The notes: generated by a model not told the origin, from the letters alone. A stretch of DNA of 64,000 bases from Eubacteriales bacterium (GCA_045657485.1 JAZOTE010000063.1:107395-171394), one strand, 5' to 3'; shown: positions 359 through 48,189, numbered from the stretch's first letter. Made by a program: numbers and translations.

Positions 359-430
359 TTAGACACATCATTTACGGAAACATCAAAACGCGTTATAATG
401 TTTTCAGAAAATACGCAAACGATGTGTTCG
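359..430. repeat. H0: degenerate large-loop copy of the TTGGACACATCAT hairpin family
   Basis: Arms tAGACACATCAT (360-371) and ACGATGTGTTCg (419-430). Left flank 333-371 is homologous to the left flank of H6 (22836-22872). Confidence 0.4.
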
Positions 431-532
431 GCGAATGTGATTTTACGATTCAAAAGCTCCATAAGTCTTATTATACAAGACTTTTAAGAAAGTCTCCCCG
501 CTCTGAAGCTCTCCCAAAGCGTCTACTGCAAA

Positions 533-760
533 GAAATGATGGGCTTATACTCCTTACTCGCTACGCCTCTGCGCTTTGTTTGATGCTTGGTGCTACTCAC
601 CTTATTGCGCTACGCCCAACGCTCGAGGAGCAATCTTCGCAGACTCGCTTACAAGCAAGCTTGCAGACTTGCTCTGCGTCGATTATCCGGCGCAGGTAAC
701 AACCCTATGGTCGGTATGACCGTAGCTGTTGCGGTTGATATCGAAGAGGCAAGCAAATAA
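533..760 (+). repeat. Module A: ~150-bp arm, core GGCGCAGGTAAC (689-700), then conserved 23-codon tail ending TAA at 758-760
   Basis: Roughly 228 bp aligns with 16783-17010. The tail translates GAGNNPMVGMTVAVAVDIEEASK*. Confidence 0.75.
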
Positions 761-879
761 TTGAACAAAAAGCGTGATTTTATCAAGTAAATAGCAAGTT
801 TTTATCAAATTTGAAGCAAATTTTGATAAACTCTCTAACAACTTGAAATCATCTTTTTAGGGCTTCCTATAAAAAAGAG

Positions 880-921
880 TTGGACACATCATTTACGTGG
901 ATTACGTGATGATGTGTCTAA
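880..921. repeat. H1 hairpin (terminator-like), family TTGGACACATCAT/ATGATGTGTCCAA
   Basis: A-tract, 13-nt arm 880-892, 16-nt loop, arm 909-921 (one mismatch), then T-rich tail. Loop is nearly identical to the H6 loop. Confidence 0.75.
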
Positions 922-941
922 TTGTTTTTAGGAGAAAAAGT

Positions 942-1034
942 ATGAAAAAACTTAAAATGATGAGTGGCGGTTCGATTACTTCGGAAGATGGATGCAACAA
1001 GTATTTGGATATGCTTGAAGTTGGATATTTTTGA
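942..1034 (+). pseudogene. Tyrosine recombinase 5' stub (30 codons)
   Basis: AGGAG RBS, then MKKLKMMSGGSITSEDGCNKYLD. This matches the starts of the stubs at 2561, 18897 and 22922; homology ends after ...KYLD. Confidence 0.65.
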
Positions 1035-1052
1035 ATAATTCTAAAAATATGG

Positions 1053-1081
1053 TTTACAGCATGAAAAAAATATGTTACAAT
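1053..1081 (+). promoter_or_regulatory. Sigma-A-type promoter for the GH-A gene
   Basis: TTTACA-N17-TACAAT with an upstream TG (extended -10). Confidence 0.5.
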
Positions 1082-1164
1082 CATTAATAGAGATTTGTAA
1101 TGAGAAATATGGGTCAATAAATTACCAAAGATATTCAATAATTAGTACAAAGAGGAGATGCGCA

Positions 1165-2250
1165 ATGAGAGAAAGGTGGACAATCGAACAGGCCAATGAA
1201 TGGTACTTAAAGCAAGGTTGGCTTCGCGGATGCAATTTTATAGGTAGTGACTGCGCTAACCGTCTTGATATGTTTCAAAGTTACAAGTCTGAGGAGAAGC
1301 TTAAAACCGCCGAGCGTGAATTGGCGTTGGCACAGAAAATCGGCTTTAATACGGTTCGTATTTGGGCAAATTTTGACGTATATTACGCCGAGCCAGAATC
1401 ATATATGGAGATATTTGAAAGATACATAGAGCTTTGCTCCAAATACAACCAAAAGGTTATGGTCGTGCTCACTCACGAGGAAGATCTTCCGAGAGGAGAC
1501 GTTTTCGTTCCTAAGCCAATGGGTGAGCAAAATTATGCTCTTGGTTATCATCAGGGAAGATTTCCCCTGACTGAGGAAGAGGCAAGCACTCCGATACGTC
1601 ACTATTATGAATACCCGGACGTCAGGCCGGTTTTCCTCGAGTTTATCAGAAAAACAATAAATAAGTACAAAAACGACGAGAGAATATTGTGTTGGAATCT
1701 TTACAACGAGCCGAGCCACGACCTTTCCGACGATAGAAGCGGTGAGATACTCGATGCGGTGTACAATATAGCGCGCGAGGAGGATCCAATACAACCGTTG
1801 ACCGTTGACCTGTGGCGCGGATTTGTCGATGGACGTCCAAAGACCGCAGAACAACAGAGGGCGCTTGAGATGTCCGACGTTATCAGCTTCCATTCATATG
1901 ATTCCTATGAGCGAGTAGTGGAGGATATTGATATTCTTAAAAGAGAAAATCGACCTTTGCTGCTGACGGAGTGGCTTCACAGAGTGAAGCATAACAACGT
2001 GTTTGATATATATCCGCTCTTGTATATAACCAACGTCGCAAATTATTGTTGGGGATTTGTTGCCGGAAAAACACAGACCACAGAGCCGTGGGAGGATATA
2101 TGGCAGAAGTGGAACGAGGGTGTTGATTGGGGATTCGATTTTACAAAGTGGCAGCACGATCTTTTCCGTCCTAATTTACGCCCTTATGATCCAAAAGAAA
2201 TCAAGTTGATAGAGAAATTCAACAAATTGGCTGCTGATGGAGATAGGTAG
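1165..2250 (+). CDS. Clan GH-A (GH5-like) glycoside hydrolase, cytoplasmic
   Basis: AGAGGAG RBS lies before ATG 1165; the track start at 1072 has none. WNLYNEP (acid/base Glu) and LLLTEW (nucleophile Glu) motifs are present. No signal peptide. Confidence 0.65.
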   Translation: MRERWTIEQANEWYLKQGWLRGCNFIGSDCANRLDMFQSYKSEEKLKTAERELALAQKIGFNTVRIWANFDVYYAEPESYMEIFERYIELCSKYNQKVMVVLTHEEDLPRGDVFVPKPMGEQNYALGYHQGRFPLTEEEASTPIRHYYEYPDVRPVFLEFIRKTINKYKNDERILCWNLYNEPSHDLSDDRSGEILDAVYNIAREEDPIQPLTVDLWRGFVDGRPKTAEQQRALEMSDVISFHSYDSYERVVEDIDILKRENRPLLLTEWLHRVKHNNVFDIYPLLYITNVANYCWGFVAGKTQTTEPWEDIWQKWNEGVDWGFDFTKWQHDLFRPNLRPYDPKEIKLIEKFNKLAADGDR

Positions 2251-2269
2251 ATAGAAGGAAAAATTCTCT

Positions 2270-2368
2270 ATGCGCTTCATGTATTTTATTCTCACGGGCG
2301 CAGGTAACACCCCACAGGCTTTAATGACTGTTGCAGTTGCAGTTGCTGTTAAGGAAGCGAGCAAATAA
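2270..2368 (+). CDS. 32-aa micro-ORF MRFMYFILTGAGNTPQALMTVAVAVAVKEASK (module B; core GGCGCAGGTAAC at 2297-2308)
   Basis: GAAGGA sits 10 nt upstream of the ATG. The C-terminal 23 codons are homologous to the tails at 689, 16939 and 18550. It may be only an att-associated gene end rather than a real gene. Confidence 0.35.
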   Translation: MRFMYFILTGAGNTPQALMTVAVAVAVKEASK

Positions 2369-2487
2369 TTTTGAATCTGCTGCAAAATAAACCCAATATT
2401 TTTAAATTCTCATTTGAATTACAAAAAATATACCGGGTTTTATTATAGCATTGTAAAAGTCTTTTTACGAAAATACAAAACAAAAAG

Positions 2488-2530
2488 TTGGACACATCAT
2501 TTTAAGGCTTTGTGCCTATGATGTGTCCAA
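2488..2530. repeat. H2 hairpin, perfect 13-bp stem
   Basis: TTGGACACATCAT (2488-2500), 17-nt loop, ATGATGTGTCCAA (2518-2530). A-tract before and T-tract after. Confidence 0.8.
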
Positions 2531-2560
2531 TGTTTTTTGTTTTTAAGGAGGGCTTTTGCA

Positions 2561-2734
2561 ATGAAAAAGCTTAAAATGAAGGTGGCGACAACACTTACCT
2601 TTGAGGAAGGTTGCAACCTTTATCTGAATAATTGCCGTGAACGATATTTGAGAGAAGGCACTGTTAGACATTACAGACAAAGTTATGACCGGTTTTACAA
2701 ATATTACGATAGAGATATCTTAGACGTTAGTTAA
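2561..2734 (+). pseudogene. Tyrosine recombinase 5' stub (57 codons, N-terminal core-binding/SAM-like domain only)
   Basis: AAGGAGG RBS, then MKKLKMKVATTLTFEEGCNLYLNNCRERYLREGTVRHYRQSYDRFYKYY. The stub ends where the convergent gene 2720-3886 ends. Confidence 0.7.
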
Positions 2735-3886
2735 ATTCTCCTTTGTGACAATCTCAACTTCGCCGTCAATCTGCAAAAACGGAATGAGCTCACCGAGTTC
2801 ACTCTTTTGCGATATATCTCGAAGCCTTAACTTTTTTACAGTTACGTTCTCATCTACCGTAAGGAATGGAGTAGGATAGCATTTTTCCACTCTTCGCGCA
2901 TTGTAAATGCTAAGTCCGTCAACATCAAGTCCTTTTTGCACCCATATTATCGGGCGTTTGCCGCTCTCAACGTCGACTGTTCCCGTGCAGGTCTCTGCAA
3001 AGAGATTTTCTATAGTTATGTTTTCTATTTTCCCACGCTCATCGTCACCGCCGTGATACTTTGTTAAACCGATGCAATAGGTGTAGTAAGAGCCGAAAAC
3101 GTTGCGTATTGTGACGTTCTTAACAGGCACACCGTGGGATAGTATTCTGATAGCACTATGTGAGCCCTCTGAATAGATACCGTCAACAACAATATTTTCA
3201 ATAGGTCCGTAAAGTATATCGTCAGCGGTCAAGGCAAGAAGGTCATCGTGGCACGCGCCCTTTAAATTCGTAATGTAGCCGTTTCTGCAATTTCCTTCAA
3301 TGTGGACGCCATCCATATTCCAAAGCTTAGGACTTCCCTCGGTGTAGTCAAATATAATATCCTGAACGGTGAAGTCCTCTATGTAGCCCAAATGAACTCC
3401 GTAAACCACGGGGTTTCTAAAGGTTATATTCTTCAAAATGAAGCGGCGAACTCGACAGAAACGCATACACATTCCCGTATATGCACCTCTTATAAAGCTC
3501 TTACAAGTAGAAAGAGCCGACCAATCCCTATATCCGATGCCTATTTTCTCAAACCAATACTTGCCATCATCGTCGGGGAAATGATAAGGATTTGGCCACT
3601 GGTTATTATGATTCATATCCCAGATTCCGCCATCGATACAGATATTCTCCGAATAGGTCTCAAAATTGTCGTTTTCTATCATCTCGCAATTTGCCTTATC
3701 CGCAAGTTTTATCACGGCAAATCTTGGCAAACGGAGGGTCTGTCCGCCGTGAATCTTCAGCGTCTTACTGATAACGTAAAACTTCTCCGGCGCAGGCAAA
3801 GCAACCTCGCATATAAGCGAATCGAGCATTTCCTGTATAGCGGGATAGTCGTCGTGAATTCCGTCCCCGTATAATCTGTGTTTCAT
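2720..3886 (-). CDS. Pectate-lyase-superfamily / GH28-related right-handed beta-helix protein
   Basis: N-terminal GDGIHDDYPAIQEML opener and repetitive beta-helix rungs. No signal peptide. Confidence 0.55.
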   Translation of the reverse strand: MKHRLYGDGIHDDYPAIQEMLDSLICEVALPAPEKFYVISKTLKIHGGQTLRLPRFAVIKLADKANCEMIENDNFETYSENICIDGGIWDMNHNNQWPNPYHFPDDDGKYWFEKIGIGYRDWSALSTCKSFIRGAYTGMCMRFCRVRRFILKNITFRNPVVYGVHLGYIEDFTVQDIIFDYTEGSPKLWNMDGVHIEGNCRNGYITNLKGACHDDLLALTADDILYGPIENIVVDGIYSEGSHSAIRILSHGVPVKNVTIRNVFGSYYTYCIGLTKYHGGDDERGKIENITIENLFAETCTGTVDVESGKRPIIWVQKGLDVDGLSIYNARRVEKCYPTPFLTVDENVTVKKLRLRDISQKSELGELIPFLQIDGEVEIVTKENLTNV

Positions 3887-3971
3887 AATAACTCCCTAAT
3901 AAAATCTGTTTATCCTAATAATTATAACACAATTCAAATAAAAAATCAATGATTGCAATTCATAATCAATA

Positions 3972-4721
3972 CTATCTCCAGGCGTCAGTAATGGAAAGGG
4001 CAAAATCGTCGGCGGTTCCGAAAACAGGAGCTAACGAGAATATCGCGTATAGTCCTCCCTCAACAAAATCAATATAGAGCCTGTTGTAAATGTTTTCAAC
4101 AGAGTCTATCCTTACACCTGCAACATATCGAAAGGTTTCATCCTTTACGGGAAATGAGAGATAGTATTCTCCGTGCTCCGTAGGTCTTGCCTAGGCATAG
4201 AGCTTGTTTTCTGCTTCCAACAGATCAACACTATTCCAAACCGCAGGCATAGAGGATGCGCCCGAAAGGTGAGGCGAGGTGCGAATAATAATTCCTGCGA
4301 TGTAAAAGCCCTCTCGCTCGGTTATAGTTACGGTTGGGGGTTCAGAGGTTTTATTCTTTTCAAGATTTACAAGAGGGTTCGGTGCTGGCGGCCGGTGAGA
4401 GCCAACGCGTTGCCTGTATTTCTCGGGGGAGTAGGAGTAAACCTTTTTGAATGCCTTTGAAAAACCGCTGTGAGATTCAAAGCCGTATTCAAGGGCGACA
4501 TCTATTATACGCTTTCCTGCGCAAATATCATATGCGGCTCTTGCAAGGCGCGCACGGCGTATATATTCCATAATCGGCATTCCTACATAAAACAAAAAAA
4601 TCTTGCAGAAATGATAGGTGGAAAATCCCGCCCTTTGCGCAAGCATCTTGGAGGAAAGAGGCGACGATAGATTTTTTGTTATAAAATCGACTGTTTGGTT
4701 TATAATCTTCTGATAGTGCAT
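3972..4721 (-). pseudogene. AraC-type HTH + GyrI-like effector-domain regulator interrupted by one in-frame TAG (complement of 4191-4193)
   Basis: The HTH region reads ...EYGFESHSGFSKAFKKVYSYSPEKYR. The same frame continues past the TAG for 72 more codons (ARPTEHGEYYLSFPVKDETFRYVAGVRIDS...ITDAWR*) and completes the GyrI-like domain. Confidence 0.7.
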
Positions 4722-4863
4722 GCCGTCCTCCTTTTTTTATATTATAACATATAATTTTGGGTTTCGCTGTTCCAAATTTGCGAAATTAGAGATGTGCTTG
4801 GGATTTTCCGAGCTTTTAAATATGCGGTTTACTCATTCTGGCACAAAATCATAAACAAAAAAT

Positions 4864-4890
4864 TTGGCACATCACAATTTGTTTTTATAG
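4864..4890. repeat. H3: degenerate half-copy of the hairpin family
   Basis: AAAAAATTTGGCACATCACaatttgttttt resembles the A-tract plus left arm. Confidence 0.3.
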
Positions 4891-5036
4891 CAATCAAAAG
4901 CATAGTGTAAGTTTTTTGGACTTTTTTGTTCTGTTTTCGCTTTTGTCTGCGGAGATTTTTTCGCATATCGAAAAAGATATTAATCATTATAGGCAGAGCT
5001 ATAATATTTTTGCATTCGGAAATTTTCCGGCAAAAA

Positions 5037-5077
5037 ACGGATATATTATAATGGCGTGCCCAAAATGATATATCCGT
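5037..5077. terminator. Bidirectional rho-independent terminator-like hairpin
   Basis: ACGGATATAT...ATATATCCGT 10-bp stem flanked by an A-run and a T-run. Confidence 0.5.
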
Positions 5078-5237
5078 CTTTTATTAAGTATATAGCTTTC
5101 CGTTGTATCGGTTAACTATATTTTTATTTAAAGGTTAAATATATTTTGCTTTGAATTTTAAATAAACCATTTTTCGCTTTGCGAGGCTGATCTATTCGTG
5201 CGAAAAATTTATTAATTTAGTTGAGGGATTATTGATT

Positions 5238-6191
5238 TCAGCGCGAGAATTTGCGAATTGCATCCGCATACGAGGAAACGTCAAAGTCACCGTAGAGTTC
5301 GTGGTAATCGTCACCGAGATAGCAGGCAAAGGACGTGAGCCAATCAAATCCCAGCTCGGCGTATTTTTCCACATCGTTTCGCATCAGCTGCTCATCGAGG
5401 GTGAATTTTTTCGGGGGTCTTACTCTGCCCGAGAAAATGGAGTTATCAAACCAATATTCAAGCACCTTGGGCGATTCGGAATTAAAGGTTTTCATCAAAG
5501 GCTCAAGCATTTTTCTTTCGCGCTCTTTCTTTGCCTCAGCATCGTCGCCCACAGCGGTGTATTTTTCAAAGGGTGCGTACTCAAGAAAGACGCCTTTATC
5601 GGGAAGAATTTTTGCGGGCGGAACAATGCTATCGAAATATGCAAGGTATGCCATTTTTGCATTAGGAACGGATTTTTTGATCTCTTTGAGCATTGCGTTA
5701 ACAACGATCATTTGCTGCTCGGACGGAGAATATTTTCTGCAATTTTCGCAAGAGCAATGTGTGTCTCTGCCATCGTCCATCCAAAAATAGAAATTCGGCT
5801 CAGTGCCATAGAGCATTGAGGCAAGTCTCGCCGCTCTTCTAACGCAGAGGGCAAGGGCATCAGGATTTGTGACGCAGAAGTTCCAATCGTTTACTCTTTC
5901 GCCCTCGGAATTCATTCTGAAGTATTCCGGGTGTTCGCCGATCAGATCTCTTGGAACAAGATAACCTGCGGCGTGAAGCTCGTACTCGATTTTAACCCCG
6001 CGAGACTTAGCGTAGTCTATAAGCTCTCGATAGTCCTTTGTTGCAACAAGCTCCTCCAGCTCAAAAACAAATTTATAAGCTTCCTTTCCGCCTTCGGAAT
6101 GAATACCGAGAATATCAAGCCCGGCATCTGCCATTCGGTCTATCCATCTTTTTGAAAGATCCTGCGGATTTATAATAAGTCCTGAAGTCAT
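5238..6191 (-). CDS. DUF4838/GH20-like TIM-barrel protein
   Basis: FWMDDGRDTHCSCENCRKYS (CxCxxC block) and overall layout. Last gene of a tight 4-gene operon. Confidence 0.45.
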   Translation of the reverse strand: MTSGLIINPQDLSKRWIDRMADAGLDILGIHSEGGKEAYKFVFELEELVATKDYRELIDYAKSRGVKIEYELHAAGYLVPRDLIGEHPEYFRMNSEGERVNDWNFCVTNPDALALCVRRAARLASMLYGTEPNFYFWMDDGRDTHCSCENCRKYSPSEQQMIVVNAMLKEIKKSVPNAKMAYLAYFDSIVPPAKILPDKGVFLEYAPFEKYTAVGDDAEAKKERERKMLEPLMKTFNSESPKVLEYWFDNSIFSGRVRPPKKFTLDEQLMRNDVEKYAELGFDWLTSFACYLGDDYHELYGDFDVSSYADAIRKFSR

Positions 6192-6227
6192 ATCGCTTTC
6201 CTTTTCGGTAGTATTTTAAATAATTGC

Positions 6228-8306
6228 TTACAGTTCAAAAACAAGTTTGCCGCCCGCCATAATATCCACTATGTCAATACGGAAATTCTGAATTTCTTTG
6301 CCGTTGAATCTAACGGAGCTTATATATTTTGCTCCCTTATCTATTACGGAAATTTCCAGCGTTTTACCGGATGAAAGGGATATTTGGGCACTCTTTATCA
6401 TTGGCAATCCAACCAGAAATTCTCCGCGTCCGCTTGCAGGGAACAATCCCAAAACGTTCCACACCAAAAGCGATGACAGACCGCCCGAGTCGTTGTTTCC
6501 GGGCAAGCCGCACCGACCTGTGCCAAACGATCTGGTGACACACTCTCGGATTATATCCTCAAGTCTGTCGTGCCGCCCCGCAAAGATATATGCAAAGGGC
6601 GTCTCCATGTCACATTCGTTGTTGAAGCCCTCAAATCTATGATACGCTGTTTTGGCGATGTCCGGGTATGCATCAAGATGCCTTATCGGTTTTATACTCT
6701 CGCCCGTGAAGCCGAAGAAATCGTCAAGAGCCTTGCAAAGCTTTTCTTTGCCGCCGAGAAGGGCAACCCTCTCTTCCATATTATTTTGGATACGGAATGA
6801 GTAGGTGTATCTATCCCCCTCATAATAAGGTGCGTTATCGGACATAAGTCCGTCGTTACCGTATGCGATCTTCCAATTCTCGGAGAGCTTTTTGAGTCTT
6901 TTTGCAAGCTTTTTGCTGTTTGTAATCTTAGCTAAGGCAAGACAAGTGTCCGTAACGTCGAGAATATGTGTGTATCTTTCAAACGAGCCGGAAAGAACGA
7001 AGAGCTTGAAATCATCGCGGCAAAGCTCCCGCTCTGCACATTCCTCAATAAGTGAAACAGTCGCATCTTCAATACCCATATAGTGGGCGTCAACGAGTGT
7101 CAGAACTCCAAGCATTTTTGCTTGCATTTCTGCAGGAAAAATATCCGAAAGACAGAAGCTGCAGGGTATACTTCCAAGTACTCTGCTTATATTACCGATT
7201 GTGCGGACAAGCTTACCGCCCATTTCGGGGTATGCAAAGTAAATCAAGGGATATGCTGTCTTGTATTGATCCCAGAGGGTTGCAAGATCCACGACCGTGT
7301 CTTGCGCAACTCCGAGAACACATTCACCCGTCATATCAACCGGTTTCACGAGCGAGTGATAAAGATTTGAATAAAACTTTCCGAGAAGCTCATCCGACTC
7401 AGCTTCAATTTTGAATTTTGAGAGATGCTCGTTCCAGATTTCATATGCTTTTGATCTTGCGCTGTCAAAATCAAGCTCGGCAGAAAGAAGCTCTTCTTTT
7501 GCTCTCTTTGCTGATACTGTGGAATAGGCAACGGCAATTTCGCATACGTTTCCGTCGGCGTTGAATACCGCCTGCATCGGAAGATTAGCACTTTCGGCTT
7601 TGAGTGTTTTTTTGTCGTTTTTTTTGCTATCTTGGCATAAATATGCGACCCGTGTCGAGTTTTTTGCACGAGCTACAAAGTAAAGCCTTATTCCGGAGAA
7701 GATTCCCGAAAATGAAATTTCGCCTTCCTCTTCAAGCAAAAGGGTACAATCCTTGATTGTTCCCCGATACTTTTTATCGAAAGCCGTACTTAAACCGTCG
7801 TTTGAAAAATCTATGGCAACCTTTCCGCCTGTATTGGGAAAGCTGTATCTATGAAGTGCGACGCCTCCGCTTACTGTCATTTCGCACTTTATGCCGCCAA
7901 GCTCCGCAGAGTAGTAACCGGGGACCGCAAACTCATTTTTGATGGGGTGATACACCCTGCTGTTTTTTTCGTCACCGAAAAAGGGTGTTGTGAGAGCGTA
8001 ATTATAGAAAAATTGAATGTCTCCGGTTCCGCTTTGGTGAAGATGGGTAAATCCCACAGCAAGCATTTCATCGGAAAGCTTGCGTATTCCGCCGCAGGAA
8101 TTGGGATAATGAGTGCCATATCCTGTGGGGTAAGCCCCGCTGTACGCGCCAACGGACATTTTTCCAAACGGAAGTGTTGCGTGGGGAATCGTATTGCCAC
8201 ATTGCGCTTTTATGTAAAACCATTTTGACGCAAGTCCTTCGTCAAAAAATCTGTCGGTTTCACCGTTTCCCATAAAAACGTCTACGTGTTTGCAAATGTC
8301 AATCAT
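6228..8306 (-). CDS. GH92-like alpha-mannosidase
   Basis: GFTHLHQSGTG and GLPGNNDSGGLSS correspond to conserved GH92 blocks. No signal peptide. Confidence 0.65.
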   Translation of the reverse strand: MIDICKHVDVFMGNGETDRFFDEGLASKWFYIKAQCGNTIPHATLPFGKMSVGAYSGAYPTGYGTHYPNSCGGIRKLSDEMLAVGFTHLHQSGTGDIQFFYNYALTTPFFGDEKNSRVYHPIKNEFAVPGYYSAELGGIKCEMTVSGGVALHRYSFPNTGGKVAIDFSNDGLSTAFDKKYRGTIKDCTLLLEEEGEISFSGIFSGIRLYFVARAKNSTRVAYLCQDSKKNDKKTLKAESANLPMQAVFNADGNVCEIAVAYSTVSAKRAKEELLSAELDFDSARSKAYEIWNEHLSKFKIEAESDELLGKFYSNLYHSLVKPVDMTGECVLGVAQDTVVDLATLWDQYKTAYPLIYFAYPEMGGKLVRTIGNISRVLGSIPCSFCLSDIFPAEMQAKMLGVLTLVDAHYMGIEDATVSLIEECAERELCRDDFKLFVLSGSFERYTHILDVTDTCLALAKITNSKKLAKRLKKLSENWKIAYGNDGLMSDNAPYYEGDRYTYSFRIQNNMEERVALLGGKEKLCKALDDFFGFTGESIKPIRHLDAYPDIAKTAYHRFEGFNNECDMETPFAYIFAGRHDRLEDIIRECVTRSFGTGRCGLPGNNDSGGLSSLLVWNVLGLFPASGRGEFLVGLPMIKSAQISLSSGKTLEISVIDKGAKYISSVRFNGKEIQNFRIDIVDIMAGGKLVFEL

Positions 8307-8326
8307 TAAGCTTTACCTTTCCGTTT

Positions 8327-10444: not shown

Positions 10445-11880
10445 TATTTTGTCCTCCGGCAATCATAAACTATTCTGCCGTCCGCCTCCCAAATTCCCTT
10501 TTCAGTTTTTTCAGAGGGGATCTCGTCGTAGTGGGCAGAATATTTAATTTCTTTTGCGTCTTCGTTATCGGCAAAAATCACGCCTCGCCTGATATGGACG
10601 CTCTTATTTTTATCATCCAGAAGCGCAAGCGCGCCTACACCGAACATATTTATGTTATTAAGGTAAATATTGTGGGCGAAGTCGCCTTCTCTCATAACGC
10701 TGAAATCTATAAGCTGTGAGTTTTCCTTGCTTGAAGGACGGAAATAAACGTCGGAAACGGTTAGGTTCTCGATCTTAGCTCCGCTTTTAGCACTTGCCCA
10801 GCCGTCGGGTGTTGTTGCGATAACCGACTTGCAGGCATCCGCCGCATAAACGCCGGATACGAGAGAATCACGCAAGGTGGACTGAATATACACCGCTCTT
10901 GTGCTATACTTCGCATTGATATTTCGAATTGTGATATTATATGTTTCTCCAAGTATTGAATGGCGAATCGCTGCGTAGTAATTATTACCTACTGCAACGA
11001 GAGCATAACGCTCAAAGTTGTCGTTTGCCGCAGGCCGAATAAAATCTGTATCTCTTATATTTTCAATATTGATGTTATAAAGCTTCGCGCCGTTGTGGTT
11101 TCTGAGCGCGACCAGTGGGTGACGTACAGCCGCGCCGCTGATATTTCTTATGGTGACGTCGTGGATATCCCAATCGTGACCTTCAACGACAACGGGATAG
11201 TCAATATTAAAGCCAACCTTTCTATCCGTATCAATGGCGGAAAGGGCGATCATATCGTCGCCTGTTTGACCGTGGATATTTTCGATCAGAATATCGTGGC
11301 AGCCGTTACGGAGATTTATACCGTCCTGATTTCTTCTGTCTTGTTTGACGCTAAAGAATATATCGCGAATGATTCCTTTTGAGCAAAATTGGAATCTCAT
11401 ACCCCAATATCTTTGATTTATAATGGAAATGTTTTCGACCTTGAAGCCCTCAACGTTAATAAAGAAAATTGGGGTGTTGAGGCGGACGGGTACGCCAAGC
11501 TCCTTCTGGGTTGCCTCGTTAAGAGCTGTTGGGTTTCCGCCGTCGAGAACAGCGACTCCCTTACCGTGAATGTTGATGCCATACATACGCTCTTCGAGCT
11601 TTGTTCCTCGCTCTGTGAAAAGATTATCCGAGCAGAAGAAACCGCCTACAACGTCGTCTGCCATAACCATATAGCAGTTATCAAGCTCGATGCACATTTC
11701 GGAGGGGAGACGGATAGTTTTGTTTATCACCCACTCTGTCTCGCCTCGCCTTGCGTTGAGTCTTGGAATAACGACCTTGTTAATTCCTCGCTTTGCGGCG
11801 AGATCAACGGCGTTCTGAATTGATTCGGAGTCGGTTTTACCGATTGTATCATTCGGTGAAATGAAGTTTAAAATTTCCAT
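10444..11880 (-). CDS. GH28-like beta-helix glycosidase
   Basis: NQDGINL and GDDMIAL catalytic-type motifs. The TAA stop overlaps the next ATG (TAATG), suggesting translational coupling. Confidence 0.55.
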   Translation of the reverse strand: MEILNFISPNDTIGKTDSESIQNAVDLAAKRGINKVVIPRLNARRGETEWVINKTIRLPSEMCIELDNCYMVMADDVVGGFFCSDNLFTERGTKLEERMYGINIHGKGVAVLDGGNPTALNEATQKELGVPVRLNTPIFFINVEGFKVENISIINQRYWGMRFQFCSKGIIRDIFFSVKQDRRNQDGINLRNGCHDILIENIHGQTGDDMIALSAIDTDRKVGFNIDYPVVVEGHDWDIHDVTIRNISGAAVRHPLVALRNHNGAKLYNINIENIRDTDFIRPAANDNFERYALVAVGNNYYAAIRHSILGETYNITIRNINAKYSTRAVYIQSTLRDSLVSGVYAADACKSVIATTPDGWASAKSGAKIENLTVSDVYFRPSSKENSQLIDFSVMREGDFAHNIYLNNINMFGVGALALLDDKNKSVHIRRGVIFADNEDAKEIKYSAHYDEIPSEKTEKGIWEADGRIVYDCRRTK

Positions 11881-11995
11881 AAAAGCCGCCTAAGTTTATT
11901 TTGCTAAAATAAATAAATTATCTTCTTGACATTATTGTACATTTAAAGTATAATTAAAACAAGGGTACTTTTTGCTTTTTTTAGGGGCGATTTTT

Positions 11996-12874
11996 ATGAA
12001 TATTACAAAAAACATAGCTGAATATATCAGCGCGTTGTATAGCATTCATGATGCAGGAACTCAAACGGAGATACATAGGCACGACAATGCGCTGGGCGGA
12101 TCGGACTTTGAGCTCGTCTACGTTGTTTCGGGATACGCTAAAAACGTTATAACAGGACAAGAACCCAAAAGCATCTCGGCGGGAGATTATTTTTTCCTTG
12201 ACGGAGGAATAGAGCATTGCTATCTCGTTGAAGAGGGCGAAGATCTCATGATCATAAATCTTATTTTTGATAACAGAGCCGTGGACCTCTGGCACAAGAG
12301 GGTGAATTCACTTGCAGAGCTTGCTTCCTTCTACGGAATAAATCCGAAAACCGACGACAACCGTGTACGCTACGATTTTTACTTTAAGGACGACAAGGAC
12401 GAATCTGTCAAAAGGCTCTTTACCGAGATAGACTCAGAGCTTTCCGCGAGACTTCCCGGATATTACGAGGCTGTTCGTTGCAGGCTGATGGAGATACTTA
12501 TAAAGGGATTTCGACAATATTTCAACAGGGATACGACGATCCAATGCTCACCGGACGTAAGGTACGTGATCAACTATCTTACGGCATTTTATATGGAGAG
12601 CACCACTCTTTCTTCGCTTGCAAAAGAACTACGTTTAAGCCTGCCTTATCTATCAAAGAAATTCAAGGAAGAGGTTGGTCAAACGTACCTTGAGTATCTT
12701 CACGCAAGAAGGATAAGCGAAAGCTGTCGCATGCTCTCAACCTCGGATGTTCCAATCGAGAGCATTGCGGAATTTATAGGTTATTCCGACTCGAAAAAAT
12801 ATCGGGAAAAATTCAAGGAGATAGTGGGAATTTCTCCGCGGGAATACAGAAAAAGACGTCGCGATCAAAATTAA
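11996..12874 (+). CDS. AraC family transcriptional regulator (cupin + double HTH)
   Basis: C-terminal HTH region reads ...ESIAEFIGYSDSKKYREKFKEIVGISPREYRK. Divergent from the GH operon. Confidence 0.8.
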   Translation: MNITKNIAEYISALYSIHDAGTQTEIHRHDNALGGSDFELVYVVSGYAKNVITGQEPKSISAGDYFFLDGGIEHCYLVEEGEDLMIINLIFDNRAVDLWHKRVNSLAELASFYGINPKTDDNRVRYDFYFKDDKDESVKRLFTEIDSELSARLPGYYEAVRCRLMEILIKGFRQYFNRDTTIQCSPDVRYVINYLTAFYMESTTLSSLAKELRLSLPYLSKKFKEEVGQTYLEYLHARRISESCRMLSTSDVPIESIAEFIGYSDSKKYREKFKEIVGISPREYRKRRRDQN

Positions 12875-12915
12875 TTAAAATGTTTTAGATCGGATGTGCA
12901 AAACACAGCGATAGT

Positions 12916-13003
12916 AAAAGAGCAAGAACAAAAGGATACTGCGTCACCTCAAAAGCGTATTGCCTTGGGGTCAAGCTCATAATCCTTTTATTCTTGCTCT
13001 TTT
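12916..13003. terminator. Long inverted repeat between convergent genes
   Basis: AAAAGAGCAAGAACAAAAGGAT ... ATCCTTTTATTCTTGCTCTTTT. Confidence 0.45.
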
Positions 13004-13033
13004 TGCGTCGCGCGACGAATTTCGCCCTAAAAA

Positions 13034-14572
13034 TTACAGTCCCTTTATGTATTTATCTATTTCAAACAACCTGTTTGCAGTACCTATCAGGCAATTGATC
13101 CACAATTCGCCGCCCGTTTCTCTGCAATCCTTCGTTCTCCAGTGAGTAGGTATCAATCCGGTTTTTGTGTTTTGCATTCTTGTGATAGAATCAGCCAAGG
13201 CCTTTGCCTTTTCTAAATAAATCGGATATTTGGTAAGCTTATGCATATTTAGAAACGACGACATAATTCCCGCGGTTGAGGAATCGATCGGGACGTACCA
13301 CGCGTATTGCTCAAGACCGGCAGGGTACGACCAATTATCCGTGTTGTCGTGCTTATGATACTTTAATGGTTTATCCCAAACGACAAACTGGTCCTCTATG
13401 TACCTCATCAACTCCTTGGCACACTCGATTTTTTCGGGGTCGTCTCCGTGGTGGTTGGCGATGTCTCTGATAATTGCGCTTGCGGTGAAATGGGTCATAT
13501 TGGAATAATGCTGTGATAGGACCGCATCCTCAAACTGACCCTCCCAATGGAAGTCCTTGATGGTGTTTTTCCAAATATATTCCATTCCGCCTTCTGCGAG
13601 AGCTTTATATTTCTTGTCGTTTGTAATTGCGTACGCCTTGTATAAGAATCCGCAAATTCCGGACGGTACGCTGTATTGCGGTACGAGCGAATCGCCCGTG
13701 TCAACGGAAAGCATTTGATGCCAGGTGCCGTTTTCACAAACGTGGGCTTTATAATACTCCGCGATTTTAATCGCCGCATCCAGGTATTTTGCGTTGTTGG
13801 TCACACGGTAGAGGTTTAAATAAGCAGATCCTGCGCTGCAAGGATAGATCAGCATGGTAGTATTGAGTCTTTTTCCTACTACGTGGTGACTTTTCATATT
13901 GTTATCAAGATCGGGAATGCAATAATAAGTTGGCGGTAATCCTTCTATGGGTGAACCCTTGGGAGCTGACGCCTGTATCATGAAATCCGCCGCGTTTTTT
14001 GCGATAGTCATAGCCTTTTCGGCATTTTCCGGACTTAATTTAGAATAGTTAATCATGGCGTCTATGATGGCGGAATTCATTTTGGTCAAGAATATACCGA
14101 GATGATAGTCTGTGTTGTATTTTCCTTCAGCCCAATCGCTGATATAAGGATCTGTCAATAAATAATCGTATACCTTTTTTGCACACGCGCCGTAGTCCAA
14201 AGCCTTGGGAGGATATTCACCGGTGAAGGGCGCGGATTTATGAAAGCTTCTTGCGCCTACCGTTGCGATTCTGTTGCCTTTACTGTCTAATGCATATGCG
14301 TAAAGCTGAATCTGACCTACCTCCAACTCGTTCCAAATAGGAGTTAAAAGGGCGTAGGAATCATCCGTTGCAAAGGAATGCTTCGTTCCGCTTTCGTCCT
14401 CCGCTTCAAACAGATAGCTCGTGCAACCCGAAAGCGGCGCGAAATCAAACGAAGGGCAGTACATAAACGCTTGAGCCTGAATATTCCAAAAGGCGTTACC
14501 GTTTACGCCGCCTCTGCGTATTGCGAAATCCGGATTGTTGTATTCTTCCAGTGCTATTTTTTTAAAATTCAT
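13034..14572 (-). CDS. Hypothetical 512-aa protein (possible polysaccharide-active enzyme); parent of the fragment at 29333-29752
   Basis: Long ORF. Start chosen at MNFKK with AAGGG upstream. No motif I can name. Confidence 0.5.
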   Translation of the reverse strand: MNFKKIALEEYNNPDFAIRRGGVNGNAFWNIQAQAFMYCPSFDFAPLSGCTSYLFEAEDESGTKHSFATDDSYALLTPIWNELEVGQIQLYAYALDSKGNRIATVGARSFHKSAPFTGEYPPKALDYGACAKKVYDYLLTDPYISDWAEGKYNTDYHLGIFLTKMNSAIIDAMINYSKLSPENAEKAMTIAKNAADFMIQASAPKGSPIEGLPPTYYCIPDLDNNMKSHHVVGKRLNTTMLIYPCSAGSAYLNLYRVTNNAKYLDAAIKIAEYYKAHVCENGTWHQMLSVDTGDSLVPQYSVPSGICGFLYKAYAITNDKKYKALAEGGMEYIWKNTIKDFHWEGQFEDAVLSQHYSNMTHFTASAIIRDIANHHGDDPEKIECAKELMRYIEDQFVVWDKPLKYHKHDNTDNWSYPAGLEQYAWYVPIDSSTAGIMSSFLNMHKLTKYPIYLEKAKALADSITRMQNTKTGLIPTHWRTKDCRETGGELWINCLIGTANRLFEIDKYIKGL

Positions 14573-14918
14573 AATAACACACCCTTTGCTTTGATGTTTT
14601 TTATATTTTACCAATATGAATTCTGATTGTGAATATAAAAAGTTAGTTATTTTTTACTTTTACACGGGTTTTAAGTGGGCTATCAATTCCTAATATCACG
14701 CGTGCTGCATTTGCGCGTATACGGTTATTACTATGGCGTGGATATTTAAAACAGTAAAACGGAGTGATATAACGAAATTTTCCTGCGGAAATCCATACCT
14801 CGCATATATCAGCTCGTATCGGTAGGTGGTTATGACAATCGGGTATATGATTTTTGTGGGAGTCGAAAACTGCAAAGCCTATACTATCCAAGATTTTACG
14901 ATCATCTGGGCGTCAGAT

Positions 14919-15446
14919 TCAGGATCGCCTCTTTCGCAGCTCCGGTATCACGTCGTAGGTTATCAGAGAATATATGAGAGAGGTGAACGCCAAAGTGTCA
15001 CCGATACACGATCCGATGGCTCCGCTTGATATATTGTATATAAAGCAAAACGGACAGCATATCAGGGATAGTATTCTGATGCTTTTTTCGTTTTTCAGCC
15101 AAAGTGCATCCGTCTGAAGCGCAACTCCTGCTATTAGAAAAAGGCTGAATACGTTCTGATAAAGCAAAAGTCCCGTACCTATGATCACTATATTGTTAAC
15201 CGTAAATATCAGAGGCTTGTGCTTTTTTAGTTTCGGCCGCTCGATGTTTTGAGCGACAAAGGTTGAAACCGCACCGACAACGTCAAGAACCGCTCCCGCA
15301 AAAGCGCCTAAAAGTACGTACTGAACTATATATAGTAAGCGCGAGCTGAGATTAAGGGCGAGTATGTAGCTTCTTTTCTTTTGCAAATAACCTAAAAGAA
15401 AGAGGGCAACCGCCAAAATACCGGCAATAAAAGCAATCTTTTCCAT
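14919..15446 (-). CDS. YgjV-like inner membrane protein
   Basis: Multi-TM, 175 aa. Paralogous to 35435-35971 and to the fragment at 16437. Confidence 0.55.
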   Translation of the reverse strand: MEKIAFIAGILAVALFLLGYLQKKRSYILALNLSSRLLYIVQYVLLGAFAGAVLDVVGAVSTFVAQNIERPKLKKHKPLIFTVNNIVIIGTGLLLYQNVFSLFLIAGVALQTDALWLKNEKSIRILSLICCPFCFIYNISSGAIGSCIGDTLAFTSLIYSLITYDVIPELRKRRS

Positions 15447-15666
15447 TATTTCACCTGTGATTGTAGTTTAAAAAGAGAATATGCGAAATAGGGCACTTAA
15501 AAAAAGAGAGGGAAGAAATGTTTGTTTTTCGTTATAACGAAAACAGTATTCGATCCTTCAAAATAACTGTTGTACTTATTATACCAAGCTTTTTGACTTT
15601 TGTAAATAAGTTTGTCGATTTTTCTCTGATATACGGGCAAGCAGATGAATATAATCCGCAAACGTC

Positions 15667-15695
15667 TTGCAATAGCTTTACAAAAGTGCTATAAT
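15667..15695 (+). promoter_or_regulatory. Sigma-A-type promoter
   Basis: TTGCAA-N17-TATAAT. Confidence 0.5.
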
Positions 15696-15762
15696 ACGAT
15701 ATGTAACGGGGACTCTCACCGCTTTTGCGGTTCTTCGTTTAATAAATAAGGCTGGCGGTTGT

Positions 15763-16398
15763 ATGATAGGCTGTAATTTTAGGAAAACAAATTATAATAC
15801 CAAAATTTACGGAATAGATCAGAGAGGGGAAGTGCGGCTTCGCCGCGCAGCGATTTTTTCCGCTTTGATGTTTGGTTGGATATTGATCTGGGCATTGGTA
15901 TTTAAACTTGGAAGCGAGATCTTAATGCTCCGAAATTACCACAATTTAAAGGATATGACCATCGGGGAGAGATTGATTTGGGATTTAATTCCCTTTAACT
16001 ACCGTGGGGATGAGTATTGGATAATGCGTCAGAAGATTGATACCGTCCTCAACTGTTTCGTGTTTAGTCCATTTGGCGTGTTTTTCTCCTACGCTTTTAA
16101 AAAGGGCAGAATAATTTACGGATTGCCCCTTTGCTTCGCTATTTGCGTCACGGTGGAAATTTTGCAATTATTCACTTTACTCGGAAACTTTGCCACCGAG
16201 GATTTCATCACCAATATTGCCGGATATTTTATAGGACTGATAATTTATCTTATCATTTTCAAACGATTGAGTGTCACACAAAGTACCGCTTTTTTCAGAG
16301 TGATAAACGTACTTCTCGCTATCTTAACGATCTTTTCGGTAGGTACGATTATTTATACTCGCGACGTGATAGTGGGAATAATTACACGTGCTTTCTGA
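15763..16398 (+). CDS. VanZ-like family membrane protein
   Basis: Blocks ...NCFVFSPFG...VEILQLF...EDFITNIAGYFIG. Confidence 0.55.
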   Translation: MIGCNFRKTNYNTKIYGIDQRGEVRLRRAAIFSALMFGWILIWALVFKLGSEILMLRNYHNLKDMTIGERLIWDLIPFNYRGDEYWIMRQKIDTVLNCFVFSPFGVFFSYAFKKGRIIYGLPLCFAICVTVEILQLFTLLGNFATEDFITNIAGYFIGLIIYLIIFKRLSVTQSTAFFRVINVLLAILTIFSVGTIIYTRDVIVGIITRAF

Positions 16399-16436
16399 TA
16401 GTTTTGAAAAAATCGTAAACTTACTAAGGATTAATA

Positions 16437-16510
16437 TGAACGTACCTGCATTAATCACCGGACTTCTGGGTGTTGCGCTCTATCTTCTGTGCTTTCAGCT
16501 AAAGGATGCA
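16437..16510 (+). pseudogene. 5' fragment of a YgjV-like gene
   Basis: MNVPALITGLLGVALYLLCFQLKD matches the N-terminus of 35435-35971 at both nucleotide and protein level. Similarity stops at about 16510. Confidence 0.55.
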
Positions 16511-16782
16511 AAGGCTAGGACTTCTGCAACCGTGCCTAAAGCACAACACCCACGAGATAAATAAGATAATTGAGATTATGATGAAAAATCTTAGGGGCTA
16601 TAATGGTGGCATTGCTTGGGAGAGTGCTATGAAAGAAGTAAACCAATTGATAGCTGAGTGCGAAGCAAAAGGTATTATGAAGAGGTTATAATGTTATGGG
16701 TGAAGTATTTTTAAAAAGATAATAGATAGAGAGTTTGAGACACTAACGGTTGATGAACTGAAGGTAAGACAACTTTACGTCG

Positions 16783-17010
16783 AAATGATGGGACTCATAC
16801 TCACGACGAGCTACGCCTCTGCGCTACGCTTGAGGCTGTGTGCTTTGCACCTTGTTGTGTTACACGCAACGCTCGTGGAGCAATCTTCACAGATTTGCTT
16901 GCAAGCGAGCTTGCAGACTCGCTCTCTGTCGATTATTCGGCGCAGGTAACAACCCCATGGTAGGAATGATCGTTGCCGTTGCAGTTGCTATCGAAGAGGC
17001 ATCCAAGTAA
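16783..17010 (+). repeat. Module C: arm + core GGCGCAGGTAAC (16939-16950) + tail GAGNNPMVGMIVAVAVAIEEASK*
   Basis: Aligns with module A over about 228 bp. Tail differences from A are mostly synonymous. Confidence 0.75.
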
Positions 17011-17098
17011 TGCCTTGATTTTCAAGGTTTTTTGAGATTTATAGAGCTTTATGTGAGCTTTGTAAAAATCATTTCGCCCAAAATCTCAAATAAAAAAG

Positions 17099-17125
17099 TT
17101 GGACACATCATAAACGTATTTCCGC
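17099..17125. repeat. H4: left arm and part of the loop of the hairpin (same subtype as H5), truncated
   Basis: TTGGACACATCATAAACGTATTT is identical to the H5 left half. The right arm is missing. Confidence 0.6.
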
Positions 17126-17165
17126 AGGTGAAGAATACATAATTCGCTTCTTCGGCATTATTCAT
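17121..17165 (-). pseudogene. 5' stub of an unknown gene (RBS + ~15 codons) fused to the H4 loop
   Basis: GGAGGAAGG, then ATG MNNAEEANYVFFTCG, after which the frame runs through the hairpin arm. Confidence 0.3.
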
Positions 17166-17498
17166 GTGGAGCCTTCCTCCTTGAATGACAGTTTTGAGCT
17201 CAACATAACTATACCAAATTCTGCCAGCGAATACGAGAGTTGAACATATACTGTTTCAAATTAAAACTATCACAAACAGGACGAAAATCTCACTCAATTC
17301 ATCCCCTCTTTTGGATTTTTATTTGATGATTCCCATTGCCAAAAGGGCGTAAAGATGGTATCATACACGCGCGGACAAAAATAAATTCGTCCACATTGTG
17401 TCCACAAAGGCACAAACAAAAAAGCGTTAAAAACTAACCAATAAGAGATTTGAAGAGGACTTTTTCTTCGTAATTCACCGCGCGTCCAACGCGCGTTC

Positions 17499-17510
17499 GG
17501 CGTAGGTAAC
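17499..17510 (+). repeat. Decayed fifth copy of the core (GGCGTAGGTAAC)
   Basis: The left flank ttcGGCG.AGGTAAC matches module C. The right flank is only weakly similar to the tail. Confidence 0.35.
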
Positions 17511-17625
17511 TATGCCGTCGGGCTTCGCGCTCGCTTTGCCTTGTCTTGAACGATTTCTCCGAATCAGCATAATCGCCTTGTCTTACTTTTGCTTTATTTC
17601 AATAAAAACATTTTAGGAGTCCACT

Positions 17626-18438
17626 ATGAATTTTGATAACGTAAAATTTGATATTATCCTGCTTGCAGGTCAATCTAACGCGGAAGGCTCCGGCTATGGG
17701 CCGCTTGTAGAGGAGCATCTGCCGGATGGCGTTTTATACCGTATGTCCGGTCTCGGAAAGGGCGATGGATATATTGAGGGAATGTGGCATCTTTCTCTTC
17801 CTGTAGACGTCACGATCGAGGAAGTGGATTCTCGTGAAAAATACGATTTCGCCGTTTCCTTTGCGCGCGAGTACCGTCGCTTGGGACTTCTCGCAGAGGA
17901 TCGCAAGCTCCTCATTCTCCACACCGCGCTTGGCGCTACGTCGTTTATGGCCGAGCAGTGGACGCCGATGGGGCTCTGCTATCGCCGTATGCTCTATCTT
18001 CTGGACTGCGCCTTAAATCTGAACCCCGAAAACCGCGTGGTTGCGATGCTTTGGCATCAGGGCGAATCGGATGCCTCGCGCGGTGCTACGGAGCAGATGC
18101 ATTATAAAAATCTCTGCTATCTTTTTGAAAATACGAGAAAGCGCGTAGGCAATAATATTCCAATCATCACGGCAGACTTCTGCGCCGATTGGAAGAGCGA
18201 AAAAGCGGAGGCCTGTGCTCCCATCGTGGCGGCCATTCGCCGCGCAACCGAAGCGTTCGGCGGTGTATTCATCGAAACCGCAGACCTCCCCTCCAACGCG
18301 CAGGACAAGGCCGATCCCGAGGATCATATCCATTTTTCCGGAAAATCTCTTGAAATTCTCGGAAAACGATATTTTGAAGCATTCAATATGATAAGAAGTA
18401 AATCGTCAGAGCCCTTGCAGGCAAAGAGCGTGTCATGA
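17626..18438 (+). CDS. SASA-type (sialate O-acetylesterase-like, SGNH) carbohydrate esterase
   Basis: [10 protein letters not shown] and LWHQGESD motifs. Confidence 0.7.
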
Positions 18439-18549
18439 AGGCTTATGAAGAAGCGGTAAAGGAGGAGTATCGTTTCTTCTCCTTCGGCGACGCGATGCTG
18501 ATTGTATAAATCGCCCAATACTGCGTTGAAGCATCGACTTGTCGCCCTC

Positions 18550-18621
18550 GGCATAGGTAACAACCCGCAGGTTTTAATGACTGATGCAGTAGCTGTTGCT
18601 ATCGAAGAGGCAAGCAAGTAA
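18550..18621 (+). repeat. Module D: core GGCATAGGTAAC + tail GIGNNPQVLMTDAVAVAIEEASK*
   Basis: 24 codons in frame, with the stop at 18619-18621. Confidence 0.7.
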
Positions 18622-18823
18622 TTCGCAGCGCGAATTACAATGAATTGCCCTTGTGGGCATGAATTGATAACTACATTATCGTGAATTGGCTAACGCCATA
18701 AATTGTGCTGCGGCGCATGAGTGGCAATTCAATTCATGGAGATAAGCGAGAAATCATGACGCAACGCGTCAATTCATGCAATCGAAGATTGCAAATCATT
18801 GTATAATCGTATAATAAAAAGAG

Positions 18824-48188: not shown

Positions 48189-48189
48189 C

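Follow-up and report, generated by a model that had tools for sequence, protein, structure and literature searches.

Copies of the 3′ end of a GGGtGRT gene as probable scars of serial site-specific integration in a Eubacteriales genome

A 64,000-nucleotide (nt) window, one strand, of the genome of a Eubacteriales bacterium (GCA_045657485.1, JAZOTE010000063.1:107395-171394) contains four copies of a 12-base-pair (bp) core with a 23-codon open frame, which an initial annotation had picked out from the DNA alone. We propose, with a probability of roughly 0.85, that these repeats are attachment-site (att) scars of the attL/attR type, left by site-specific integration events that recurred at the 3′ end of a GGGtGRT-family gene (Pfam PF14057). 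Related loci and contigs from other genomes and metagenomes are denoted by L-numbers (L001, L214 and so on); the related contigs were reached via a query with the best-preserved recombinase stub of the window, located downstream of tail copy D.

Identity of the repeated tail

The core is a degenerate 12-mer, GGCRYAGGTAAC, with five exact matches on the plus strand of the window (689, 2297, 16939, 17499 and 18550). When at most one mismatch is allowed, six matches are found against 0.59 expected by shuffling, and none of the shuffles reached six. The four 72-nt units (A-D) form one repeat family, with identities of 71-84% to copy C. A DNA profile of 132 tails from other loci, none of them from the window, returned exactly four window matches in nhmmer (E-values from 3e-20 to 1e-13), followed by a next match with an E-value of 0.42. 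The four copies and the decayed core of the initial annotation were thereby confirmed, with its coordinates and translations being exact:

689-760, plus strand: tail copy A, comprising the core and the final 23 GGGtGRT codons with their stop, GAGNNPMVGMTVAVAVDIEEASK then stop; profile E-value 1e-19
2297-2368, plus strand: tail copy B, GAGNTPQALMTVAVAVAVKEASK then stop; Q-type element lineage, the most decayed copy; profile E-value 1e-13
16939-17010, plus strand: tail copy C, GAGNNPMVGMIVAVAVAIEEASK then stop; profile E-value 3e-20
18550-18621, plus strand: tail copy D, GIGNNPQVLMTDAVAVAIEEASK then stop; Q-type; profile E-value 1.5e-15

At locus L001, the core GGCGCAGGTAAC lies at 3593 inside an intact gene for a 332-residue protein (2666-3664), the C-terminus of which reads ...VPAHVEMMGLIGAGNNPMVGMTVAVAVAVEEAMK before the stop codon, with IGAGNNPMVGMTVAVAVAVEEAMK as its last residues. 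The segment 2666-3661 matches PF14057 (GGGtGRT protein) over profile positions 1-327 of 327, with an E-value of 2.9e-191. Translated searches (tblastn) aligned the window tails to residues 302/308-332 of the GGGtGRT protein and returned the four tails as the only matches, the gene body not being found in the window. As judged from these alignments, the 23-codon frame represents the C-terminus of the 332-residue GGGtGRT protein; since the tail is the end of an intact gene whose body is missing from the window, the repeat is the 3′ end of a real gene absent from it. The target gene ending in ...EEASK that had been predicted to exist elsewhere than in the window is thus assigned to the GGGtGRT family. 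In a scan of one genome per species, this gene was present at 80 loci in Acutalibacteraceae, Christensenellaceae, Oscillospiraceae and other Clostridia, all with C-termini of the form G[AM]GNNPMVG[MA][TS]VA.AV[AS][IV].E.... The C-terminus is kept across about 100 Clostridia genomes, and 96 of 96 sampled gene-joined tails carry it, ending in ...VAVA(I/V)EEA(S/M)K.

Comparison of an occupied and an empty site

The one complete element examined, at locus L214, comprises the GGGtGRT gene (8868-9866), a hairpin (~9920-9965), a 315-residue recombinase (10001-10948) and a second tail (18832-18900). A 96-nt direct repeat (9772-9867 against 18809-18904, 89.6% identity) flanks this 9-kb element, the cargo of which includes a WYL protein, a DUF4379 zinc-ribbon protein, a resolvase, helix-turn-helix proteins and small open reading frames (ORFs), several ORFs being unassigned. 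No relaxase family appears in its precomputed Pfam listing, and NCBIfam gave no match for two cargo genes of this one element, the remaining ORFs not having been scanned.

The closest relatives of the L214 gene are those of L017 (97.1% over the gene body) and L034 (94.0%). L034 presents the empty site, in which the end of the gene is followed by about 200 nt and then by a flanking gene that matches the right side of L214. In L017 and L034, the native tail and terminator match the distal tail of L214, GAGNNPMVGMTVACAVAVEEAMK, with its terminator CCCTGTTCTCAATGAGAGCAGGG. The gene-joined tail of L214 is GMGNNPMVGATVACAVAVEEAMK, with the GACACATCAT hairpin and the recombinase next in order. As the distal tail and terminator are of the native type, the element brought in a replacement for the last 23 codons along with its own terminator, displacing the native copy by 9 kb. 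The earlier proposal of an element-borne replacement 3′ end is therefore borne out at L214, and the core region does coincide with an insertion boundary, the 9-kb element lying between two tails at a position that is empty in L034. Among all fetched loci with at least 93% identity, no presence/absence indels were detected.

At L017 (9269-11285) and L032 (7727-11045), a different repeat of about 45 nt, GAACCT-hairpin-GAACCTTRTTACTCGC...CGTAATAA, occurs 3′ of the GGGtGRT gene and flanks extra segments of 1.9-3.3 kb; both genomes are without recombinase elements. It may point to insertions of a second kind at the GGGtGRT locus.

Position of the crossover

In L214, attL and attR are identical over 26 nt, ACGTTGAAATGATGGGTCTCATCGGT, and then differ (ATG against GCA) at core positions 4-6. 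For this element, the comparison places strand exchange within these 26 nt, the last of which is base 3 of the core. The core had been taken as the crossover site itself; its position at the insertion boundary stands, but it adjoins the crossover rather than forming it. Among the detached tails, homology to the gene begins at varying left boundaries, which were read from an alignment table and are approximate in number: about a dozen end some 24 nt upstream of the core (at GTAGAGATGATGGG...), another dozen or so between -8 and 0, including window copies B and D and the four copies with a 140-nt arm, and a few at +6 or farther in. Taken with L214, these counts favor a crossover in or next to TCTCATCGG.

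Break-point mapping between loci yielded one informative pair, L110 and L126, the left flank of which is common up to GGCGCAGGTAAC. The common flank spans 2.2 kb (L110:158-2347 against L126:1539-3728) through ...ATCGGCGCAGGTAAC, with divergence directly after it; in L126 the core is followed by 27 nt and then by a hairpin without a tail. The break point lies at the right edge of the core, like that at window position 17510, where the following feature ends:

17300-17510, plus strand: element right-end arm, defined by flank homology to L107, ending in the decayed core GGCGTAGGTAAC at 17499-17510 without a tail

About 200 nt to the left of this decayed core are homologous to the corresponding flank of a complete L107 tail copy, up to and through GGCG(C/T)AGGTAAC, where the homology ends; the match to L213 is weaker. 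The decayed core, already listed in the initial annotation, is thus genuine.

Tail copies A and C also have a left arm in common (541-761 against 16791-17011, 81% identity), which is absent in B and D. This had been noticed before as a shared arm; it now resolves into 16-22 nt of gene sequence from directly 5′ of the core (codons EMMGL), followed by an insertion of about 140 nt:

532-547, plus strand: GGGtGRT gene fragment GAAATGATGGGCTTAT, codons E-M-M-G-L, with exact 14-16 nt matches just 5′ of the core in many intact genes
548-688, plus strand: arm of ~140 nt between the gene fragment and core A, common to copy C and recurring in L149 and L177
16777-16798, plus strand: GGGtGRT gene fragment CGTCGAAATGATGGGACTCATA, 22 nt, with a 22/22 match to L075
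16799-16938, plus strand: arm of ~140 nt, homologous in sequence to 548-688

The match of the 22-nt fragment to L075 ends 1 nt before the tail of L075 starts, and many matches of 20-21/22 occur at the same position of other GGGtGRT genes. The ~140-nt arm, found elsewhere at L149:1418-1560 and L177:4011-4150 (both minus strand), sits exactly between the gene fragment ...CTCAT and CGGCGCAGG, and its last bases (CTGCGTCG ATTATC) and CGGCGCAG make up an inverted repeat of 8 nt with a 6-nt spacer. RNAalifold on the four arms (A, C, L149 and L177) gave only two covarying pairs, and hence no convincing RNA structure. The arm may be what is left of another element that had nested at this site.

The recombinase and the proposed integration cycle

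Loci L026 and L030 each present an intact GGGtGRT gene, a spacer, a hairpin and a full-length ORF of 310-312 residues in contiguous order. With L214, they provide the intact recombinase-bearing elements next to the target gene whose existence the initial annotation had left to be checked. The full-length recombinases of the three loci (310-315 residues) combine an N-terminal SAM-like domain (PF13102) with a catalytic domain (PF00589), in which RHTFA and GH...Y motifs are visible. Their best profiles are XerA, XerC and XerD, with scores well below the cut-offs, and they also match the general phage integrase family phrog_1. Since the element encodes its own recombinase and targets the inside of a protein gene, an integrative mobile element exploiting Xer (IMEX), which relies on host XerCD at dif, was rejected.

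Window segments 688-934 and 18816-19148 align to the contiguous tail-to-recombinase region of L026. Downstream of hairpins A, B and D, a ribosome-binding site precedes an ORF that starts MKK(L/I)KM...EGCNKYL. The recognizable recombinase stubs are:

942-1010, plus strand: stub A, residues 1-23 of the stub query
2561-2716, plus strand: stub B, residues 1-52
18897-19199, plus strand: stub D, residues 1-101, SAM-like domain only; the ORF continues to 19244 in unrelated sequence
22922-23032, plus strand: stub F, residues 1-37, with an in-frame stop

A full-length recombinase query against the window matched only these N-terminal stubs and no C-terminal fragment. Across loci, the stubs end at points from residue 23 to about residue 294 and fall into hundreds of clusters at 50% identity. 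Among the matches listed in two protein searches, nearly all of the best homologues are short, which is partly an artefact of short metagenomic contigs; the short stubs are nevertheless real in every long contig examined. One possibility is that only 5′ stubs survive because deletions that run toward the hairpin are selected against.

The element carries the gene of a small Xer-like tyrosine recombinase and, just upstream of it, an element-borne version of the final 23 codons of its target with a stop, then a spacer of ~70-200 nt and a strong terminator-like hairpin. Recombination at, or just 5′ of, GGCGCAGGTAAC would join the tail of the element in frame to the gene, so that the protein stays intact, and would shift the previous tail to the far end of the element. 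Each new element would enter the regenerated gene-proximal site, and older elements would therefore accumulate distally. The integrases would then be lost from their 3′ side, leaving N-terminal stubs, while the cargo (glycoside hydrolases, an esterase and AraC regulators) would be retained.

Hairpins downstream of the tails

In agreement with the initial annotation, each of the units A-D is followed by a variable spacer (87-201 nt) and a hairpin of the form TTGGACACATCAT-N16/17-ATGATGTGTCCAA with arms of 13-14 nt, to which a recombinase stub is attached in A, B and D but not in C. Related modules extend beyond the four units:

330-431, plus strand: hairpin-like module, element right end, with left arm TTTAGACACATCAT at 358-371, a ~47-nt loop and a right-arm-like ACGATGTGTTCGG at ~419-431
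879-922, plus strand: hairpin A, terminator-like with A-run, long stem and T-run; fold -28.9 kcal/mol, z -8.4
2487-2531, plus strand: hairpin B; fold -31.5 kcal/mol, z -7.8
17098-17141, plus strand: hairpin C, perfect left arm and degenerate right arm, loop type as in hairpin D, without recombinase stub
18823-18866, plus strand: hairpin D; fold -25.9 kcal/mol, z -7.7
22831-22902, plus strand: hairpin F, with an upstream module like 330-376 and no tail before the hairpin
27946-27989, plus strand: diverged hairpin G, GTTGGACACATTGT...GACGTGTCCAAT, the last recognizable unit of the array

Segments 330-376 and 22831-22877 are 85% identical; L004 and L177 have homologous modules, located upstream of tail copies. 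Within the long-loop hairpin module, a good sigma-70-like promoter match (371-399, TTTACG-17-TATAAT, 10/12) is directed toward tail A.

The hairpins fold at -23 to -31 kcal/mol overall (z -5.3 to -8.4), with an A-run and a T-run on their flanks. Among 100 distinct metagenomic hairpins, the "loop" contains a short inner helix of varying sequence. The mean minimum free energy of the loop segments is -2.36 kcal/mol against -0.24 kcal/mol after shuffling, with 26% of single shuffles folding equally well or better. A count restricted to inner pairs that continue the outer stem without a gap was negative, as a small internal loop lies in between. A simple terminator scan did not flag the hairpins, owing to its limits on loop and stem size, and a search of viral contigs with the hairpin pattern returned no match. 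In genomes without an element, the GGGtGRT gene ends with unrelated terminators, and the native terminator of the L214/L017/L034 lineage differs in sequence from the hairpin. We infer that the hairpin acts as an element-borne terminator; as the start codon of the recombinase lies only ~30-40 nt downstream, it may also control the expression of the recombinase.

The window as part of a tandem array

The window holds the interior of a tandem array of at least six decayed elements, which extends over ~28 kb from 330 to ~28000 and contains no working integrase. The GGGtGRT gene must lie upstream of window position 1 or have been separated from the array. Arrays that start at an intact gene are found at L001, L217, L149, L152, L100 and L133. 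The cargo in the window consists of the following segments:

1165-2250, plus strand: glycoside hydrolase, GH5/GH2-type TIM barrel
2720-16691: block of GH28, AraC, DUF4838, GH92, GH20, GH28, AraC, GH127-like, YgjV and VanZ genes
17626-18438, plus strand: SASA-family carbohydrate esterase
19276-22537: NAGLU-like glycosidase (minus strand) and AraC regulator (plus strand)
22646-22822, plus strand: DUF4379 zinc-ribbon gene fragment, a family also carried as cargo by the intact L214 element
23278-27767, plus strand: 566-residue protein without Pfam match, GH28 and PHP-domain protein

Several observations weigh against integration scars at the GGGtGRT gene as the full account of this array. The intact target gene lies outside the window, so that the anchoring of the window array draws on its relatives; exact look-ups of proteins of the window, its own recombinase stub among them, matched no recorded protein. 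The left boundaries differ among the tail copies, leaving a single crossover point unproven. Many boundaries are marked by a hairpin without a tail (window 22831 and 27946; L001 9929; L004 9932, 12833 and 19794), and at L001 a 6.1-kb AraC/GH2/DUF6259 cassette lies between two near-identical 38-nt hairpins, which the simple model accommodates only via secondary deletions or recombination. An excised circle was not seen in the assemblies, in which the junction of a P-arm with a tail looks alike in a tandem array and in a circular form. Other features go beyond the simple model as well: L217 has two tandem hairpins 114 nt apart and a cassette between a hairpin and a stub, L031 has a cassette without a recombinase between tail-plus-hairpin units, and loops are common to hairpins C and D, and to A and F, despite different tails and spacers. 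Secondary deletion, together with homologous exchange between the conserved hairpin-integrase segments, could be the source of the tail-less boundaries, the unusual cassettes and hairpin pairs and the common loops; a second recombination activity, directed at the hairpin, is conceivable as well.

Alternatively, the hairpin with its 13-bp inverted arms might be the real recombination site, and the tails passengers that were never joined to the gene. Xer-like enzymes act on inverted-repeat sites and the present recombinase is Xer-like; the frequent hairpin-only boundaries, the hairpin duplication around the L001 cassette, the tandem hairpins of L217 and the loops common to C/D and A/F all speak for such a site, as does the similarity between the gene sequence ATGATGGGTCT and the hairpin arm ATGATGTGTCC. 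We nonetheless regard it as unlikely, because in L214 the tail joined to the gene is not of the native kind, the native one sitting distally with the native terminator, so that the exchange took place 5′ of the tail and not at the hairpin. On this attL/attR comparison the hairpin was rejected as the primary crossover site. Moreover, arms 16-17 nt apart, an inner helix and A/T runs give the shape of a terminator rather than that of a recombinase site with a 6-8 bp spacer, and most genomes carry no such hairpin 3′ of the gene and would therefore lack an attB.

An integron-like platform, on which a single resident recombinase would take up cassettes that lack promoters, with the tail-plus-hairpin unit serving as attC, is very unlikely. 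The resemblance to chromosomal integrons lies in long arrays of short cassettes (A to B is 1.6 kb with one gene, and cassettes without an integrase occur in L031 and L217), in a repeated unit with a hairpin whose arms are conserved and whose center is variable, and in weak matches to integron-integrase profiles. The scores, however, are 54 bits against a cut-off of 265 and 26-37 bits against 435, and on these IntI-type profiles and the recombinase stubs carried by the modules an integron was rejected. Cassettes here hold their own recombinase remnants, the repeat includes coding sequence of a host gene, the cargo lies on both strands with AraC regulators of its own, and complete elements carry several genes of their own.

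Drift of the displaced tails

Between tails A and C, eight codons differ synonymously and two non-synonymously, including a serine AGC/TCC switch, which the initial annotation had read as a signature of purifying selection on the peptide. The count is upheld, but current constraint on the detached copies is not: residues outside the usual set of the family average 0.02 in 96 gene-joined tails compared to 2.5 in 32 detached tail copies, 18 of which have at least two. The other tail pairs in the window show a ratio of about 1:1, with 6-7 synonymous against 5-7 non-synonymous differences. Each of the tails A-D has at least one residue never found in gene-joined tails, the unusual residues numbering one in A (D17), five in B and four in D. 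In-frame deletions occur in some detached copies (L004:3973), and a tail of unclassified status in L169 carries a stop. The detached copies are under relaxed constraint, and the synonymous excess is best read as history, i.e., the tail was, or descends from, a working C-terminus and has probably been drifting since its displacement.

The variant NNPQVLMT occurs in detached copies only, namely window D, L116, L149, L152, L184 and L186, and window B has the related NTPQALMT. With a spacer type of its own, the NNPQVLMT tail marks a lineage of elements; the spacer of copy B looks homologous, by eye, to that of L149.

An autonomous family of small-peptide genes, or non-specific duplication of GGGtGRT pseudogene fragments, is scarcely credible: the frame is open and ends in a stop in four of four copies, and an upstream ATG gives B an ORF of 32 residues, but the copies have no start codon or upstream frame in common, the sequence is the end of a 332-residue protein of which only the last 23-31 codons are duplicated, always in the context of spacer, hairpin and integrase, and the pair of empty and occupied sites displays site-specific insertion.

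Comparison with known systems

That integrative elements accrete in tandem at a gene's 3′ end is known; the target gene and the element family described here are new. In streptococci, the integrative and conjugative elements (ICEs) ICESt1 and ICESt3 and cis-mobilizable elements (CIMEs) accrete in tandem at the 3′ end of the protein gene fda, and IMEs (elements that are integrative and mobilizable) reside at rpsI, rpmG or tRNA-Lys (PMC5704250; PMC7563491). As in these systems, the tyrosine recombinase adjoins the att site, the element brings along a new 3′ end for its target, successive elements are set apart by direct repeats of this 3′ end, and older elements decay to non-autonomous relics. 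The present elements differ in their GGGtGRT/PF14057 target and in their short Xer-like recombinase, in which no arm-binding domain was detected, and the Pfam listing of the one complete element, L214, contains no relaxase or conjugation genes. Their cargo consists mostly of carbohydrate-active enzymes, and the modules are numerous and as small as 1.6 kb.

The island PAISt of Streptomyces turgidiscabies is reported to be located at the 3′ end of bacA and to undergo modular excision (PMC4057263). It resembles the GGGtGRT arrays in targeting the 3′ end of a conserved gene and in having several att copies that delimit modules within one island. Its site, as described there, is an 8-bp palindrome, compared to a duplication of ~96 nt including 23 codons here, where the modules are dead.

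The GGGtGRT arrays can also be set beside islands at genes for tRNA or transfer-messenger RNA (tmRNA), in which the element likewise restores the 3′ part of its target and displaced copies accumulate. Such genomic islands occur in tandem arrays, as seen in surveys of the Islander/TIGER type. The GGGtGRT target is instead protein-coding, and its displaced copies therefore carry a codon-level conservation signature, the pattern by which the repeats were first spotted.

The 3′ end of the GGGtGRT gene would thus represent a previously undescribed integration hot spot. In the titles and abstract openings of the listed papers that name GGGtGRT, the protein is apparently mentioned only in proteome or gene lists, and no description of it as an integration site was found there. 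It recurs in the metaproteome literature of rumen and gut. The small Xer-like integrative elements form a widespread family in uncultured Clostridia, and the arrays illustrate how carbohydrate-degrading islands of gut anaerobes can be assembled piece by piece. Tail repeats offer a simple marker to delimit such islands and help to account for the frequent breaks of contigs there in metagenome-assembled genomes. More generally, conservation of codons in short, repeated ends of ORFs can record past integration rather than mark a peptide gene.

A bolder version, which we consider conceivable but doubtful, is that the GGGtGRT 3′ end serves as a dedicated gene-accretion platform of uncultured gut and rumen Clostridia, with serial Xer-like insertions, systematic disarming of integrases from the 3′ side, and the hairpin as a second recombination or insulation site. 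If so, the platform would yield large lineage-specific arrays of carbohydrate-utilization cassettes, an analogue of the integron built from self-integrating modules, and the survival of 5′ stubs only would reflect mechanism, not chance.

Other repeats in the window

A tmRNA tag or another known RNA was rejected, as ARAGORN and Rfam matched only a tRNA-Arg in the window (45994-46070). This tRNA-Arg(CCG), on the minus strand, has a partial copy of 49 nt at a distance of 212 nt (46236-46284, 92% identity), a footprint typical of another integration event, in this case at a tRNA gene. Blocks of 148 and 85 nt are repeated about 2.08 kb apart at 47972-48265 and 50048-50346 with 91-93% identity; between them lie a TetR-family gene and an unassigned ORF, and the second block holds the GC hairpin GCCCTGCCGAAGCAGAGC. 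Diverged duplicates with 74-77% identity occur at 13823-14122 and 29369-29668 (GH127-like fragment), and at 16448-16508 and 35447-35507 (5′ end of a YgjV-like membrane protein gene), which suggests paralogous cargo or further rearrangement beyond the array.

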